Shown: positions 31,332-64,000 of the stretch, piece after piece
How the letters are laid out: each line of letters begins with the position of its first letter
Numbering within the stretch: position 1 is the first letter of the stretch
IMG/VR virus record: IMGVR_UViG_3300036770_007703
Location: 21,289-85,288 of that record
Direction: 5' to 3' (one strand)
DNA: 64,000 bases
DNA from: a virus
The notes under the pieces: generated by a model
The model's database searches: none
Told to the model about the DNA's origin: nothing
The model's input: the letters and a program-made list of their open reading frames with translations, nothing else
Made by a program: the position numbers and the translations under genes

Positions 31332-31902
31332 TGCTCTGTTTGATTTCGAAAAAGCCTTGGCCGAATTCACTGGTGCACCTTATGTGGTGGTCACTGACGG
31401 TTGTACACATGCCATTGAACTTTGCATGAGATACCACGGTGTAAAGAAAACACGATTCACAGCATTTACCTATCTCAGCATACCGCAGCTGATGCGTCAA
31501 CTTGACATCGAACACGATCTGATCGGAGAAGAGTGGCACGGAGAATACCAATTCTATGACACCTGTATCTGGGATTCGGCCCGGCGGCTCGAATCCAACA
31601 TGTACCGCAGTGGACAACGACAGTGCGTGAGTTTTGGTTTCGACAAACCGTTGGCCTTGGGCAAGGGTGGTGCTGTGTTGTTGGATGATCATCACGAATG
31701 GGAAGTGCTGTCACGCTGGCGAGCCGATGGTCGAGATCTGCGAATATCACCGTGGCAACAACAGGTGAGATTTGGTCCTGGATGGCATTATTGTCCCACT
31801 CTAGAACTGTGTCGCCAAGGTTTGGCATTGCTGTCGGGGTTCTCTGGTGCTTGCCAGACAGCAAAGTATCCAGATTGTCGACAAATAGTGCTGGAATCTT
31901 GA
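31321..31902 (+). CDS. short DegT/DnrJ-type PLP aminotransferase
   Basis: FEKALAEFTG, DGCTHAI, WDSA, SFGFDKPL..GKGG. Confidence 0.7.
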   Translation: MAFDALFDFEKALAEFTGAPYVVVTDGCTHAIELCMRYHGVKKTRFTAFTYLSIPQLMRQLDIEHDLIGEEWHGEYQFYDTCIWDSARRLESNMYRSGQRQCVSFGFDKPLALGKGGAVLLDDHHEWEVLSRWRADGRDLRISPWQQQVRFGPGWHYCPTLELCRQGLALLSGFSGACQTAKYPDCRQIVLES

Positions 31903-31927
31903 CCACGACCTAAATATCTTGTACAAT
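31899..31927 (+). promoter_or_regulatory. sigma70-type promoter with embedded TAAATA
   Basis: TTGACC-17 nt-TACAAT; TAAATA at 31911. Confidence 0.6.
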
Positions 31928-31966
31928 AACAGCATGGCGATCCACCGCCCTAACTCGGAGACTGTA

Positions 31967-45040: not shown

Positions 45041-45069
45041 TTGACCAGAAATTGCCATTTTCGTATAAT
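45041..45069 (+). promoter_or_regulatory. sigma70-type promoter
   Basis: TTGACC-17 nt-TATAAT; ATG 6 nt downstream (leaderless). Confidence 0.75.
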
Positions 45070-45075
45070 ACGAGT

Positions 45076-45420
45076 ATGGACACTAAGAAAACACCCCGTA
45101 AAAAGCGAGCAGATCGCACACACATCGTGTACCGTATTTCGTCGGGACGTGACTTCTACATCGGAGTCACTGCCAAGACTGAGAGCACCGTGCTCAAAAG
45201 TGTGCGAGTTCGCATGAACAAGCATCTCTATCGCAGCCGTAGCGAAGACAAATCTTGGGCACTCTACGAGGCACTACGGGCTCGTGGTCCCGAATCGTTT
45301 GTGTTCGAGATCGTGGCTGTGGTGCGTGGCAAGTCGGCTGCGCACCAATTCGAGCGTGGCTTGATCCGCGAACTGAGACCCACACTCAACACCGATGTGA
45401 GAGAAAGGCAGGCAGCATGA
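45076..45420 (+). CDS. GIY-YIG-like nuclease
   Basis: HIVYRI...FYIGVT...R..KH...FE..LI...PTLN. Confidence 0.65.
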   Translation: MDTKKTPRKKRADRTHIVYRISSGRDFYIGVTAKTESTVLKSVRVRMNKHLYRSRSEDKSWALYEALRARGPESFVFEIVAVVRGKSAAHQFERGLIRELRPTLNTDVRERQAA

Positions 45421-59886: not shown

Positions 59887-62385
59887 ATGGCCTACGTCGT
59901 AAACAATTCACGCGGACAAGTTATCGCTGTAGTACAAGATGGCACCATCAATACCAACGCTACCAGCGTGACATTGGTGGGCAAAAACGTCACTCCCTAC
60001 GGCGAATACGAGGTAGAAAACCTCGTCAAAACCCTGGAAAACTTTGCCGACGACACACCGCCCATCAACGCCATCGAAGGGCAGCTATGGTGGGACACTG
60101 GCACAGATCAGCTCAAGGTCTGGACCGGTGACGCCTGGTCCGTGGTGGGATCGGTGATTGTGAGTCCGATCACACCGTCGGGCACCATCAACGTGGGCGA
60201 TCTCTGGTTCAACAGCAACAATTATACCATGCAGATCTATGCCGAGACCATGTCGGGGTTCCAGTGGATACCGGTGTATGTGATTCCCATAACCAATACC
60301 GAACCCACCTCTGGCATCGATGGCAGCCTTTACTACAACAATGTCAGCAACCAACTGTTCATACGCAGCGGTGGAGCCTGGCAGCTGGTGGGACCTGACA
60401 ATCTCCTGGGCTATGGTACCACGAGATGGCAGAGTCAACTGCTTTTGGATGTGTCTAGCATACCAAGGCCAGTGATCATCGGCTACGTGAATGGTGTAGC
60501 ACAGTCCATACTCAGCAACACTGAATTCACTATCCGTGCCGATGTGCGCCCCACTGGATTCGAAGACATCAAAATCGGTCTCAATCTCAGTGCCACGGGC
60601 ATGCTGCAGGGTCGAGCTTCCTCGGCCGATCGATTGGCCACACCACGCACCATCAACGGTGTAGAGTTTGATGGTACCGGCAACATCGTGATTCCCACCG
60701 ACGGCGTCACTGAAATCGGTATCATCGCCGGCCCGGGCATATCGGTGGGCAACAGTCCGGTCACTAGCTCGGGCAATATCACCATCAACAACACCGGTGT
60801 CACCAGCCTTTCCGTGGGCGCCGGTCTACGAGCCACTGCCACCACAGGACAAGTGGGCATCGTCAACACCGGTGTGTTAGATGTTCAAGGCGGTGAAAAT
60901 GTCATAGTGACATCGGCCAACGGCATAGTCACTGTGAGTGCACCTGGTGTGCGCGGTCCACAAGGTCCCATTGGACCGCAAGGTCCTGCAGGACCGCAAG
61001 GCCAAAACGGTCAAAACGGAGATCGATATCTTTGTTCCAGCAGCACCGAGCTCGAGCTATTTGCTGGAAGTTCCACGCGAGTGGTGTTTGTGCCACTGGG
61101 ATTGGCATACAGTCCTGGCCAGAGTGTGATCGTTGCCAACAGCGCCTCCAATTATTTCGAAGGCACGGTGCTAAACTACAGTGCCAGCAACGGACGCTTG
61201 GAGTTTAGACCAGTCAATGTTTTTGGAAGCGGTACTTACAGCTCCTGGACCGTGAACCTGGGTGGTGCTACCGGACCCCGCGGTCCACAGGGCGAAACTG
61301 GTGCCACTGGACCACGAGGCACAGCCGGTCCGGCTGGAGATCGATACAGTTCTACCAGTTCGACTCCTTTGATGGTGGGCAACGGATCGCGCAGTTTCTA
61401 CGTGGGCGTGGGCTACAGTTACAGTATCGGTCAGTATGTGGTCATCAGTAATTCGCCCAGCATTTACATGGAGGGTCGGGTCACTGCCTACAACAGTTCA
61501 TCGGGACTGATAACAGTAGAGGTATCTACTTCACGTGGCAGCGGTACTTACAGTTCATGGAGCGTAAATCTAGCTGGATTGCCGGGACCACAGGGTGCCA
61601 CGGGACCACAAGGACCAGAAGGACCCATGGGGCCGCCCGCCCAGGCCGCAGGTCCACAAAACAGTTTCCAATACAATGCTTCGGGTGCGTTTTATGGTGC
61701 CAGTCGTGTGCTGTATGAAAGCTCGGGAGGAAGACAATTCTTCACTGTCACCGGCGACAGCAGCGACGATGCCGGGGTGTTTTACCGCAAGAGCGGTGTG
61801 GCACAACTAGCCGGCACTGGCATAGTCAAAGAGTCTACCAACTACTTCGTGGCCGGCTGGATAGGTTCTACGGGCAGTAAAATTGGCATCGAACCCGGTG
61901 TCAACGGCAACATCCAACTCGAGGTGCAATCTGGCGGAAGAGTCAAATTGCCACAGGCCAGTCAAGTATCAATACTGGGCGGTGCCAATGGACAGTTACT
62001 CAGCACCGATGGCAACGGAAACCTGCGTTGGGTCACTGTGGGCGGCAATGAATGGAACGGCAATCTCACCTCTCCCAGCGGTTGGGCCAGGGCTTCCAAT
62101 GGATTGACGTTCCAGTGGGGGCGTGCTGTGACCGGCAGTGCCGGTCGTACCAGCATTGTTTTTCCTGTGACATTTACGCAGGCCTGTTTTTCGGTACAGA
62201 TCATGGAACTCAATGCACAAGGATGGGCAGCTTCATCGTCGACGTCTGAGCCCACAGTGTATGGAACTTACAATCCTCCCACTCGTAGTGGATTCACAGC
62301 CCAAGGCGTGCGTGTCAAATCAGCGTCAGGCACTGCACCAGGTGAATCTGGTTTGAGTTTTCAATGGTTCGCTATAGGATTCTAA
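59887..62385 (+). CDS. tail fibre protein with collagen-like repeats
   Basis: LENFA...P...EGQLWWDT attachment-like N-terminus; TPRTINGVEFDGT; three (GXY)n tracts; C-terminal NGLTFQWG...FP..F...C...WFAIGF; TAAATA at 59859. Confidence 0.85.
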   Translation: MAYVVNNSRGQVIAVVQDGTINTNATSVTLVGKNVTPYGEYEVENLVKTLENFADDTPPINAIEGQLWWDTGTDQLKVWTGDAWSVVGSVIVSPITPSGTINVGDLWFNSNNYTMQIYAETMSGFQWIPVYVIPITNTEPTSGIDGSLYYNNVSNQLFIRSGGAWQLVGPDNLLGYGTTRWQSQLLLDVSSIPRPVIIGYVNGVAQSILSNTEFTIRADVRPTGFEDIKIGLNLSATGMLQGRASSADRLATPRTINGVEFDGTGNIVIPTDGVTEIGIIAGPGISVGNSPVTSSGNITINNTGVTSLSVGAGLRATATTGQVGIVNTGVLDVQGGENVIVTSANGIVTVSAPGVRGPQGPIGPQGPAGPQGQNGQNGDRYLCSSSTELELFAGSSTRVVFVPLGLAYSPGQSVIVANSASNYFEGTVLNYSASNGRLEFRPVNVFGSGTYSSWTVNLGGATGPRGPQGETGATGPRGTAGPAGDRYSSTSSTPLMVGNGSRSFYVGVGYSYSIGQYVVISNSPSIYMEGRVTAYNSSSGLITVEVSTSRGSGTYSSWSVNLAGLPGPQGATGPQGPEGPMGPPAQAAGPQNSFQYNASGAFYGASRVLYESSGGRQFFTVTGDSSDDAGVFYRKSGVAQLAGTGIVKESTNYFVAGWIGSTGSKIGIEPGVNGNIQLEVQSGGRVKLPQASQVSILGGANGQLLSTDGNGNLRWVTVGGNEWNGNLTSPSGWARASNGLTFQWGRAVTGSAGRTSIVFPVTFTQACFSVQIMELNAQGWAASSSTSEPTVYGTYNPPTRSGFTAQGVRVKSASGTAPGESGLSFQWFAIGF

Positions 62386-62408
62386 ACACCGATTTTTGCC
62401 AAAAGTGG

Positions 62409-62437
62409 TTGACAAGGTATAAATAAACTCATACAAT
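62409..62437 (+). promoter_or_regulatory. composite promoter: sigma70 with embedded T4-type late TATAAATA
   Basis: TTGACA (62409)-17 nt-TACAAT (62432); TATAAATA at 62418-62425. Confidence 0.8.
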
Positions 62438-62444
62438 AGATGCT

Positions 62445-62576
62445 ATGATGACTTCAACACTATCACTGATATCCAAATTGCATGGTTGCCAGATCCAGGT
62501 GATGCCAGCCTATTGGCCCACATCAGGATCCACCTTCCGTGCGATTGAGAATAGTGATCATGGGGGGTCCAGGTAG
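62445..62576 (+). CDS. putative attenuator leader peptide (43 aa, all 20 amino acids)
   Basis: MMTSTLSLISKLHGCQIQVMPAYWPTSGSTFRAIENSDHGGSR*; ATG at predicted +1; stop lies inside the antiterminator 5' arm. Confidence 0.6.
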   Translation: MMTSTLSLISKLHGCQIQVMPAYWPTSGSTFRAIENSDHGGSR

Positions 62577-62609
62577 ATCGAATTGTAGCACCAAATCTAT
62601 CAGGACCCT
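62564..62609 (+). promoter_or_regulatory. antiterminator hairpin
   Basis: 62564-62578 pairs with 62595-62609 (14 of 15 pairs), overlapping the terminator 5' arm. Confidence 0.65.
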
Positions 62610-62639
62610 GGAACTAAACACTCCAGGGTTTTTTGTTTT
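62603..62639 (+). terminator. intrinsic terminator
   Basis: ACCCTGGA/TCCAGGGT stem followed by TTTTTGTTTT. Confidence 0.85.
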
Positions 62640-62640
62640 A

Positions 62641-62757
62641 CGCGCCCGGCAACGAGGGCCAGACGGCGCGCAACAAATGGTCAAACGGGCGGAGTCTGGG
62701 ATGAACATCGCGGCGGTAACGCGATCAGTAAAATCAGCAGGCAGGGGACGGCCCTGC
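62641..62757 (+). ncRNA. candidate structured RNA (H-type pseudoknot plus hairpins)
   Basis: CGCGCC/GGCGCG; loop GGCCA with TGGTC; ATCGCG/CGCGAT; GCAGGG/CCCTGC. Confidence 0.45.
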
Positions 62758-62775
62758 GATGTGGAGACTGTGCGG

Positions 62776-62804
62776 TTGACCAATAATTGGTGATTTGCTA
62801 TACT
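62776..62804 (+). promoter_or_regulatory. second sigma70-type promoter of RNA cluster
   Basis: TTGACC-17 nt-TATACT with TG extended -10. Confidence 0.7.
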
Positions 62805-62823
62805 GGCAGAACAGTAAGCAATG

Positions 62824-62835
62824 CGCTCTTTAACA
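62824..62835 (+). promoter_or_regulatory. boxA (NusB-NusE) antitermination element
   Basis: CGCTCTTTAACA matches the rrn/nut boxA consensus, about 20 nt after the -10. Confidence 0.75.
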
Positions 62836-62866
62836 ACATGCACAGCGTGGCCCAGAAGTTGGGCCA

Positions 62867-63001
62867 CCATATTGAAGCACATTCGACACTGCGGCGTTCT
62901 GTCCATCCCTGTTTCGAAGCAGGATATCGCCAAGCATTTCAAACCCCGGTCGCTCCGGTCTGGTGCCTAAAAAAGAGATGGATGAGTGTGTTTCAATATG
63001 G
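62867..63001 (+). ncRNA. long-stem RNA cassette A
   Basis: CCATATTGAAGCACATTC / GAGTGTGTTTCAATATGG 18-bp closing stem. Confidence 0.6.
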
Positions 63002-63097
63002 GAGTAAGTGGGGACCGAAAAGTCCTCGGGCTGATCCCAGACGCTGCGACTCCGACAGATCGTGATCGGATAGGCCTGACAGCACCTCAACGCTGTC

Positions 63098-63193
63098 ACC
63101 ATATTAGAGCACCGCGTGAGACGGCATTGGTGTGCTGGAACCTTGAGAAAGGTATCGCTTGACTGGTTCGAATCCAGTGTGCTCTAATATGGT
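63098..63193 (+). ncRNA. long-stem RNA cassette B with internal T-arm-like hairpin
   Basis: ACCATATTAGAGCAC / GTGCTCTAATATGGT perfect 15-bp stem; CTGGTTCGAATCCAG inside. Confidence 0.6.
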
Positions 63194-63410
63194 AGAGAGT
63201 CAATGTTAAAAATGGGTATTCAGAGTATCCGTTCTTGAAAGGTGCAAATCCTGAAAGGGTGTAGTTGGGCGTGTTGCCTGAGCAAAGGTTGGATATCACC
63301 CAATCGCTATACACTGCATAGAGCCAAGTGACAACAACATGGACTCGCCATACACGGTCGAGGTGCACCCGATCATTTCTAAAGGTCACTGACACATCGG
63401 AAAGACGGTG

Positions 63411-63527
63411 ACCATAGTGAAGCACATTGCTCTCAGCAACACAGAGCATCCGCGGAGAGGACTGATCACGCTGGATTATTCATCCAGGCTGCACATTCGA
63501 CGACTCAGCAGTGTGCTTCACTATGGT
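63411..63527 (+). ncRNA. long-stem RNA cassette C
   Basis: ACCATAGTGAAGCACATTGCT / AGCAGTGTGCTTCACTATGGT 21-bp stem. Confidence 0.6.
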
Positions 63528-63613
63528 TCCTGTTCCCTGCGGCGGACTGTAAATCCGTTGCCTTAATATGCAGGGTGGCTGGCGGTTAGGTTCGATTCCT
63601 TCAGGGACCACCA
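63525..63613 (+). ncRNA. non-canonical tRNA-like RNA with Tyr (GTA) anticodon arm
   Basis: 8-bp acceptor GGTTCCTG/CAGGGACC + ACCA; GGCGGA-CTGTAAA-TCCGTT; TTCGATT loop; no D-arm. Confidence 0.6.
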
Positions 63614-63614
63614 T

Positions 63615-63769
63615 AATTATAGGTAAGCGACGATACTGGTATCGTCTATGGACGCATAGACTATGCGGGTCCTCCCAGCCGGGGACGGATCCTGATATAA
63701 CAGACCTCGGCTTCGGCGCACTTAGCGGTGTATGCCCAAATTGGTGTTTCTCGTCGCTTACCTATGATT
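63615..63769 (+). ncRNA. long-stem RNA cassette D (different stem sequence)
   Basis: AATTATAGGTAAGCGACGA / TCGTCGCTTACCTATGATT 19-bp stem between two tRNA-type genes. Confidence 0.55.
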
Positions 63770-63844
63770 GGTCTCAAAGTGTTCATGGACGCACACCAGC
63801 CTGTCACGCTGGCAGAAGGGGATCGTTACCCCTTGGGACCGCCA
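63770..63844 (+). tRNA. tRNA-Asp (GTC)
   Basis: GGTCTCA/TGGGACC-G-CCA; CCAGC-CTGTCAC-GCTGG; atypical T-loop ATCGTTA. Confidence 0.85.
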
Positions 63845-63850
63845 AGTTTT

Positions 63851-63925
63851 GCACCCATCATCTAGTGGTTAGGATATCGCCCTTTCACGGCGAGTACACC
63901 GGTTCGAATCCGGTTGGGTGTACCA
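63851..63925 (+). tRNA. tRNA-Glu (TTC)
   Basis: GCACCCA/TGGGTGT-A-CCA; TCGCC-CTTTCAC-GGCGA; TTCGAAT. Confidence 0.92.
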
Positions 63926-63933
63926 ATAGCTGT

Positions 63934-64000
63934 CGCGGGATGGAGAAGCGGCAACTCGCCAGCCTCATAAGCTGGAGATCGCAGGTTCGATTCCTGCTCC
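63934..64000 (+). tRNA. tRNA-Met (CAT), initiator-like 5' end, truncated by window end
   Basis: CGCGGGA start; CCAGC-CTCATAA-GCTGG; GCAGG-TTCGATT-CCTGC. Confidence 0.8.

Follow-up and report, generated by a model that had tools for sequence, protein, structure and literature searches.

A leader ORF with the full amino acid alphabet as a putative attenuator of tRNA genes in a giant phage

The leader element and its surroundings

The DNA analyzed here is the last 64 kb (64,000 nt; hereafter, the window) of IMG/VR virus record IMGVR_UViG_3300036770_007703, which is 85,288 nt long. Because the estimated completeness of the record is 25%, the whole phage genome probably measures ∼340 kb. The phage is an uncultured, giant, freshwater virus. 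Its DNA polymerase is of the T4 type, and the nearest isolates by this protein are Sinorhizobium phage Phosso and Agrobacterium phage Atu_ph07, with 45–50% amino acid identity. Near the end of the window, a collagen-repeat tail-fibre gene (end at 62385) adjoins a small leader element on its upstream side; downstream of the element lie a noncoding stretch, tRNA genes, and the end of the contig. The features are as follows:

62409–62437, + strand: sigma-70-type promoter, TTGACA-17-TACAAT, 11 of 12 consensus matches
62418–62425, + strand: TATAAATA motif in the promoter spacer, T4-late-promoter-like, read directly from the sequence
62445–62576, + strand: leader ORF, 43 codons plus TAG, alternative start at 62448, all 20 amino acids, putatively leaderless or nearly so
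62450–62563, + strand: extended imperfect hairpin inside the ORF, predicted from the nascent-RNA fold
62564–62578, + strand: region 2, predicted antiterminator 5′ arm with a covarying complement; core GGGTCC at 62565–62570; contains TAG at 62574–62576
62595–62609, + strand: region 3, predicted antiterminator 3′ arm, from covariation; core GGACCC at 62603–62608; shares 62605–62609 with the terminator 5′ arm
62605–62639, + strand: intrinsic terminator, from covariation; 8-bp stem ACCCTGGA/TCCAGGGT, 9-nt loop ACUAAACAC, T tract at 62630–62639
62641–62757, + strand: X RNA, a conserved structured RNA directly 3′ of the terminator, with no promoter of its own
62776–62804, + strand: second promoter, TTGACC-17-TATACT, with an extended −10 TG; also in the close relative L015
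63524–64000, + strand: first part of the tRNA array, up to the contig end
63524–63610, + strand: Tyr-anticodon tRNA-like gene
63770–63844, + strand: tRNA-Asp
63851–63925, + strand: tRNA-Glu
from 63934, + strand: tRNA with anticodon CAU, cut by the contig end

A preliminary description of this DNA, made from the letters alone, had proposed a leader peptide attenuator at this site, and its reading of the individual features was accurate. The promoter and the TATAAATA motif embedded in it are present at the positions listed above. The 43-codon ORF does contain 20 amino acids and 33 different codons. Ile is encoded by each of its three codons, and Leu, Gly, Ser, and Thr by three apiece; CTA, ATA, and AGG are also used. 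The 14/15-bp hairpin is found at 62564–62578 × 62595–62609, with 14 of 15 positions paired, two of them as G-U, and the TAG included; the terminator reads ACCCTGGA / ACTAAACAC / TCCAGGGT at 62605–62629, followed by TTTTTTGTTTT. Given the T4-type DNA polymerase of the phage, the TATAAATA motif may by analogy function as a T4-type late promoter. Among the matches listed, 90 of 142 leaders have an (A/T)AAATA motif that precedes the ATG by 15–22 nt.

The start of the leader was less clear-cut. The ATG at 62445, which is followed in frame by another at 62448, lies 7 nt past the −10 hexamer, a spacing that fits the near-+1 position claimed earlier. Judged solely by this promoter spacing, the leader mRNA would start at or near the AUG and initiation would be leaderless; in part of the family, however, the ORF has a 5′ UTR resembling a Shine–Dalgarno (SD) leader. 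With a strict promoter pattern, 90 of the 149 small-ORF sites among the matches listed were classed as leaderless, and the remaining small ORFs have variant promoters or an SD-like AAGAGAAACAAA ahead of the ATG. Two further strong promoters in the window have an ATG 6 nt after the −10 hexamer, opening ORFs of 243 and 114 aa, which makes leaderless starts plausible in this phage.

The two alternative hairpins were compared by RNA folding. In ViennaRNA, the terminator is the minimum-energy fold (−22.7 kcal/mol), and the antiterminator is the centroid fold (−18.4 kcal/mol). The antiterminator overlaps five of the eight bases of the terminator 5′ arm (ACCCT) in the window. Because the terminator state is the more stable and the overlap is partial, a switch between the two would have to be kinetic. 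The 206-nt leader as a whole folds at −68 kcal/mol (z = −2.84 vs. shuffled versions). At the base of the hairpin inside the ORF, GACUUC (62450–62455) can pair with GGGGUC (62564–62569), and this predicted pairing is a possible anti-antiterminator.

We found no promoter-like sites between 62437 and 62776. Without a promoter behind the terminator and with the X RNA directly adjoining it, the terminator lies between the leader and the genes that it would regulate, as expected of an attenuator. The promoter at 62776–62804, raised earlier as a caveat, is present and could feed the RNA cassettes and tRNAs independently. As this promoter can bypass the switch, the attenuator would add to the control of tRNA transcription in the window rather than be its sole control. 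In an Rfam cmscan of 60000–64000 (E ≤ 1), the leader and the X RNA were unmatched, and only tRNA-type matches and one weak chance hit were returned.

Relatives of the element

Relatives were collected through the terminator. An exact copy of the 25-nt hairpin is present in 25 IMG/VR contigs, and all 24 that include upstream sequence keep the promoter, an ATG 6–10 nt past the −10 hexamer, and an ORF of 33–44 codons whose stop codon stands 23–31 nt before the hairpin; the body of the ORF is barely alignable. When the search was anchored instead on the promoter plus ATGAA, the hairpin recurred with covarying stems and the conserved loop ACUAAACAC. We then scanned IMG/VR phage contigs with two degenerate hairpin patterns that were blind to the ORF and obtained at least 193 nonredundant sites. 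Among the matches listed (193), the hairpin follows a small ORF at 149 sites and a long gene at 30; the other 14 sites are of other kinds. The small ORFs span 26–67 codons and end 16–34 nt (median 26) before region 3 (149 sites among the matches listed). By a covariance model of the hairpin, each near-complete genome of 330–350 kb has only one or two strong copies, and this record has one.

Other routes yielded little. A blastn search of isolated phages (50,697 records) with the element of one relative gave no match, and the window's own 2 kb matched isolated phages through tRNAs only. Scanning bacterial genomes for the hairpin returned just four contigs, all metagenome-assembled and uninformative on the host, and relatives sought through the C terminus of the upstream tail-fibre protein amounted to two irrelevant loci.

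Both stems covary. In an alignment of 44 terminator sequences, 98.6% of cells are paired, and compensatory changes occur at six of the eight pairs. For the antiterminator, a perfect 6/6 complement between region 2 and region 3 is found in 116 of 143 relatives, compared with none in a control stretch (among the matches listed). Under Watson–Crick pairing only, 105 of 143 have a 6-mer complement vs. 40.7 ± 4.5 when region 3 is permuted among sequences (again among the matches listed). The covarying pair types are GGGTCC/GGACCC, GGGTCT/AGACCC, and GGGTTC/GAACCC, together with one-base-shifted forms. Region 2 begins 6–28 nt before the stop, inside the last 2–9 codons, in all 116 scored members, and region 3, which makes up the first half of the terminator 5′ arm, begins 16–34 nt past the stop codon. 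Thus, the comparison that had been suggested earlier came out in favor of the attenuator: the ORF, the position of its stop, and the covarying antiterminator and terminator stems are kept while the peptide drifts, and its diversity is conserved and frame-specific.

Two observations limit what the hairpins say by themselves. The same hairpin and loop also end ∼30 ordinary long genes in other contigs (among the matches listed), so the conservation of the hairpin sequence is not specific to attenuation; we therefore rejected the loop as an attenuator-specific mark. In addition, the predicted partners of region 2 vary among members, being the 5′ end of the ORF, an AA(A/G)CCC ∼30 nt into it, or none, and a conserved partner of the 1:2 type that would sequester region 2 without a ribosome was not found among the relatives' folds. 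Some subfamilies carry a copy of the terminator 3′ arm, TTCCAGG ("IPG" codons). This copy could extend the antiterminator over the whole terminator 5′ arm.

The reading frame behaves differently from the peptide that it encodes. Frame 0 is free of stops in every member, whereas stops interrupt the +1 frame in 49 of 49 sequences and the +2 frame in 41 of 49. Substitutions between close pairs are spread over codon positions 1:2:3 as 130:116:154, and the codon changes comprise 184 nonsynonymous and 64 synonymous ones. An open frame with evenly spread substitutions indicates that selection retains the frame and not the peptide. By this pattern, the leader peptide is without purifying selection while its frame is held open, and the leader is probably translated. 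What conservation of residues there is largely maps to predicted RNA helices: Q..W corresponds to CCAGx/xCTGG, YS..NS corresponds to CTATT/AATAG, and the conserved G near the end of the peptide is the GGGTC of region 2. We considered whether W, NS, and G are conserved as parts of a functional micropeptide and rejected this on the even substitution across codon positions and the location of these residues within RNA helices. Many members also share an (N/S)DRxPE block with some synonymous variation.

What follows the terminator is of two main kinds. The X RNA was found at 26 nonredundant loci, including the window, with conserved blocks and a covarying helix; at these loci, long hairpins come after it and then a run of tRNAs, which often opens with tRNA-Trp or tRNA-Ala. 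At about half of the first-set loci, the terminator precedes an SD sequence and a gene for a protein of 50–58 aa, 14–37 nt past the T tract, and then tRNAs. This protein is conserved, basic, and helical, and searches against Pfam and PHROGs gave nothing significant. Two contigs have two copies of the element; in one of them (L006), the small protein follows the first of these and the X RNA follows the second, in no stated order. All 18 loci checked with ARAGORN lie within large tRNA arrays, many of which also include a tmRNA gene.

Leader composition and the downstream tRNA genes

The preliminary description had drawn attention to the presence of all 20 amino acids in the leader and had proposed shuffled controls. 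Taken alone, the window ORF does not stand out. The probability of all 20 is 2.2–2.4% per 43-codon ORF, and with 67 ORFs of similar size in the window, the content of this single ORF is not significant; at least 33 different codons likewise occur in 32% of shuffles. For the family, the same control gave the opposite answer. All 20 amino acids occur in 71 of 142 distinct peptides (found by hairpin, among the matches listed), including those of L214 and L007, which cluster with the window's, and the separately clustered L247; the L015 leader, whose peptide we inspected, is also complete. The statistics of this comparison treat related sequences as separate, so their P values overstate independence; cluster-level counts are nevertheless still far from expectation. 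When the peptides were grouped into 38 clusters (<∼45% identity), 15 representatives contained all 20 vs. 1.0 expected by nucleotide shuffles and 2.0 with Trp forced, and 18 of the 38 clusters had at least one complete member.

Length and frame were also controlled. Among leaders of 45–49 aa, 82% are complete compared with 3.9% of control ORFs from the same loci; at 40–44 aa, the values are 35% and 1.0%. Read in either of its alternative frames, this DNA encodes all 20 amino acids in just 1 of 142 cases. The excess is frame-specific, absent from control ORFs, and far beyond chance at the family level. Chance, which fits the window ORF taken alone, was therefore rejected as an explanation on the cluster counts, the control ORFs, and the other frames. 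For Ser, Leu, and Arg, leaders also combine the two codon families more often than expected (Ser, 134 vs. 114; Leu, 106 vs. 94; Arg, 82 vs. 60), an excess that may be partly due to conserved RNA motifs.

Completeness is, however, not the most exact description of the leaders. Where an amino acid has a tRNA gene downstream, it occurs in the peptide in 1,313 of 1,325 cases; where its tRNA gene lies only upstream, it occurs in 61 of 100 (odds ratio 70). Cys is in the peptide in 64 of 66 cases with a downstream tRNA gene vs. 0 of 9 with one only upstream, and Glu is in the peptide in 76 of 76 vs. 8 of 20. Counted from the leaders that lack amino acids, a tRNA gene is found downstream for 12 of 103 missing residues vs. 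551 of 917 present ones. The missing sets differ by lineage (CE, DEY, DY, DE, D, CD, and EY) and are mostly subsets of an upstream Asp-Glu-Tyr-Cys block. In the window, where the leader is complete, the Tyr-like, Asp, and Glu tRNA genes all lie downstream. By these counts, the amino acids of the leader match the set of tRNA genes downstream rather than simply comprising all 20. The expectation that the regulatory codons of an attenuator fit the regulated product thus takes a new form here, with correspondence to the downstream tRNAs (1,313/1,325 vs. 61/100) and no single-codon runs. We also looked for enrichment of the leader in codons read by the downstream anticodons; matches numbered 523 vs. 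485 expected by amino acid and 1,120 vs. 1,101 by codon, which is weak support, and no such enrichment is claimed.

Placement of residues within the leader was considered as well. Diversity is concentrated in the putative sensing part of the leader, at which a halted ribosome would keep region 2 exposed: this part contains 18.34 distinct residues vs. 17.60 ± 0.09 after permutation of residues. Even so, many leaders confine one or two of their residues, most often Glu, Asp, or Val, to the tail, and a ribosome that stalls there would mask region 2; Asp at codon 38 of the window leader lies in such a tail.

A putative attenuator and its alternatives

We propose that the element is a ribosome-mediated transcription attenuator that heads a phage tRNA transcription unit and takes a census of tRNA supply, and we put the probability of this at roughly 70%. 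Ribosome-mediated attenuation had been the reading of the preliminary description, and the comparison of relatives supports it. Transcription would begin at the 62409 promoter, and a ribosome would translate the 43-codon leader, the composition of which would sample each amino acid with a downstream tRNA gene (in the window, all 20). A ribosome that keeps pace with RNA polymerase to the end of the ORF would cover region 2, allowing the terminator to form and transcription to end at about 62630–62636. If a tRNA were short, uncharged, or cleaved, the ribosome would be delayed at any of the codons affected, region 2 would pair with region 3, the terminator would be spoiled, and polymerase would continue through the X RNA and toward the tRNA genes. 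In the window, the attenuator would govern the X RNA and contribute to transcription of the tRNAs. The phage probably makes more tRNA, then, when ribosomes decode slowly. In the best reading, the peptide would have no function of its own, and its composition would be the selected trait. We infer the triggering stress as well as the direction of the switch, the latter from the geometry: the position of the stop relative to regions 2 and 3 suggests that a terminating ribosome masks region 2 and leaves the terminator free. The reach of a ribosome from the stop codon is taken here from general knowledge of footprints.

The direction of this switch is what a reversed logic would dispute. Leader translation would then be needed for downstream expression, by protection from Rho or by opening of structure, and poor translation would lower tRNA synthesis. 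The direction is indeed read from geometry only, with the ribosome-free state not defined, and ribosomes near a terminator are reported to be able to repress it (PMC4824070). However, the stop lies 16–34 nt before region 3, which by general footprint knowledge is beyond the reach of a terminating ribosome; such a ribosome would sit on region 2 and leave the terminator arms uncovered. The downstream RNAs are moreover untranslated, so Rho polarity would need further elements, and we regard this explanation as quite unlikely.

Two other readings deny the ORF a sensing role, and both seem to us quite unlikely. The element could be a free-standing small gene or sRNA, of which the ∼190-nt terminated transcript acts in trans as RNA or as a micropeptide, with read-through as leakage. 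The strong structure of the leader RNA (z = −2.84) and its conserved internal helices fit such a role, and trans-acting attenuator RNAs and leader peptides are known, as in rnTrpL and peTrpL of Sinorhizobium (PMC6614838 and PMC7298713). The peptide is not conserved as a protein, however, and a pure sRNA would neither hold one frame open in every member nor retain all 20 amino acids or those of the downstream tRNAs; the next gene or RNA also follows without a promoter. The released RNA could still have a trans role alongside attenuation. Alternatively, a phage or host factor, protein or RNA, could control termination by reading the 9-nt loop ACUAAACAC, the ORF merely delivering or removing ribosomes. 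Conservation of the loop sequence while the stem covaries would be expected in that case, and the conserved basic helical protein of 50–58 aa behind the terminator in about half of the loci could act on the terminator. Nevertheless, the same hairpin also ends ordinary long genes, which suggests that the loop belongs to terminators of these phages or of their hosts in general, and a factor leaves unexplained the all-20 content, the mirroring of downstream tRNAs, and the covarying region 2 in the last codons.

Leader peptide attenuation is a textbook mechanism, but to our knowledge, the described cases are confined to amino acid biosynthesis and some resistance operons, where each responds to a single signal or a small number of them. 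Like the trpL, hisL, leuL, thrL, and pheL attenuators, the phage element has a short leader ORF and then an intrinsic terminator before the genes that it would regulate. As in these enterobacterial amino acid leaders, an alternative hairpin shares bases of the terminator 5′ arm, and the position of the stop would let a terminating ribosome mask the antiterminator arm; the nearest among them are the multivalent ilvGMEDA and ilvBN leaders. In contrast, the phage element would gate tRNA and RNA genes rather than biosynthetic enzymes. Its leader has no single-codon runs and instead has at least one codon for each amino acid of the downstream tRNAs, often all 20. Most phage members are also leaderless or nearly so by promoter spacing, and no conserved 1:2 hairpin was found. 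Covariance models of the Rfam leader families (Trp_leader, His_leader, Leu_leader, Thr_leader, and others) and of the T-box gave no match in 60000–64000 at E ≤ 1. T-box riboswitches resemble the element as cis leader RNAs in which a choice between terminator and antiterminator reports tRNA status; unlike the phage element with its conserved ORF, a T-box senses one uncharged tRNA by direct binding, with no ribosome required.

Closer in the kind of signal are bmrB-bmrCD of Bacillus subtilis (PMC4191407) and the mef/msrD leaders (PMC4335068), where a stall in a leader ORF leads to terminator read-through and general translation trouble is reported. These sense drug-bound ribosomes, however, and induce resistance genes; unlike the phage leader, they lack a complete amino acid composition, and tRNA genes are not among their targets. 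Among published systems, the nearest biological parallel is the trn operon of Anabaena sp. PCC 7120, a long tRNA array induced under translational stress (PMC8421152). It, too, is an extra, horizontally mobile tRNA array that goes up when translation is impaired. Its control is at the promoter, by the ribbon-helix-helix repressor TrcR on direct repeats (PMC10272220), and a leader peptide, attenuation, or a terminator is not mentioned for it in either paper (PMC8421152 and PMC10272220). In full-text literature searches, we found no published description of the present element or of such control of tRNA genes. What appears to be new is the use of attenuation logic on tRNA genes, with a leader that samples the whole amino acid alphabet or the subset of tRNAs under its control.

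If this interpretation is correct, large phages tune their tRNA arrays by feedback from decoding speed, which bears on why and when phages use tRNAs, and the element would be a natural, compact sensor of general translation capacity. A more specific and only tentative version, which we think doubtful, is that of an inducible counterdefense: with one codon for every tRNA species of the array that it precedes, the leader would detect the loss of any single host tRNA, for example to anticodon nucleases or another tRNA-depleting defense, and replacement phage tRNAs would be switched on, together with the X RNA or the small protein behind the terminator. In such a "tRNA census" circuit, sensor and remedy would share one alphabet. 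If the element works as proposed, a role of phage tRNAs in countering host defenses that target tRNAs would become directly testable. It would also mean that the composition, and not the sequence, of a drifting peptide can be a selected trait and can serve as a signature for regulatory small ORFs.

Structured RNAs behind the terminator

The region 3′ of the attenuator's terminator holds a conserved structured RNA, termed X RNA, and further RNA elements in the window:

62641-62757: X RNA, immediately 3′ of the terminator
62866-63769: four RNA cassettes, each closed by a 15-21 bp stem
63524-63610: tRNA-like gene; anticodon GTA (Tyr), acceptor stem of 8 bp, long variable region

Homologues of X RNA were found in L004, L005, L038, L084, L222, L231, and others of the related IMG/VR phage loci that carry the terminator hairpin (L-numbers). 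They share the blocks GGCAACGAGrGCC, GGGCGG, GGATGA, and GTAAAAAT, and an X RNA helix covaries, reading CCTGTAG/TTACAG, CCTACC/GGTAG, GCCGA/TCGGC, or ACTGG/CCAGT. X RNA had no Rfam match in a scan of positions 60000-64000, and a promoter scan of the window found no promoter of its own.

The stems of the four cassettes start with ACCATA(T/G)T immediately past CCA-like ends, and one cassette contains a T-arm-like GGTTCGAATCC. Comparable long stems (GTATTAAAGCA...TGCTTTAATAC) lie between X RNA and the first tRNA in related loci. The tRNA-like gene was missed by ARAGORN, and the tRNA-Sec model gave it a score of just 26 bits. Permuted tmRNA genes, as called by ARAGORN, adjoin the tRNA arrays of related phages (L005, L008, L011, L013, L018, L027, L035, L037, L053, L075, and L102); their predicted tags include ANDEQFALAA and AKASTGEVTVSAKN....

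At about half of the related loci, a Shine–Dalgarno sequence and a gene for a helical, basic protein of 50-58 aa come after the attenuator, ahead of the tRNAs. This protein (L008:2654-2812; homologues in L012, L013, L018, L021, L022, L035, L037, and others) follows the pattern MxIDYTKLNDRI...LT.E...KLI..K..RA and had no significant match in Pfam or PHROGs. Behind the window's terminator, no counterpart of this gene was seen.

Leader starts and a conserved peptide block

The window (at 62418-62425) and 90 of 142 related leaders have an (A/T)AAATA motif, similar to the T4 late promoter TATAAATA, 15-22 nt upstream of the leader ATG and inside the spacer of the sigma-70-type leader promoter. This suggests a second, late transcription start at the leader, from which the mRNA would have a short 5′ UTR lacking a Shine–Dalgarno sequence. 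Two further strong sigma-70-type promoters in the window have an ATG 6 nt past the −10 hexamer:

31899-31934: promoter and ATG of a 243-aa ORF
45041-45076: promoter and ATG of a 114-aa ORF

Leaderless mRNAs may therefore be common in this phage.

Many leaders recovered by a second degenerate-pattern search for the hairpin (L218, L223, L236, L254, and others) carry a conserved (N/S)DR(T/x)PE block upstream of the antiterminator 5′ arm, with synonymous variation within it (CGC/CGT; CCA/CCT/CCG); the window's leader reads SDHGG at this position. One possibility for the block is a signal in the peptide, for example a ribosome-arrest motif; another is an unpaired RNA element.

The hairpin at the ends of long genes

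The same hairpin, with loop ACUAAACAC, ends a long gene in at least ∼30 contigs (among them L156, L166, L172, L176, L177, L182, L184, L192, L197, L200, L209, and L279), the product of which has the C terminus ...GFQLDSCTSVGFKL. The hairpin's 9-nt loop is conserved. The attenuator hairpin thus represents a type of terminator that these freshwater phages use generally.
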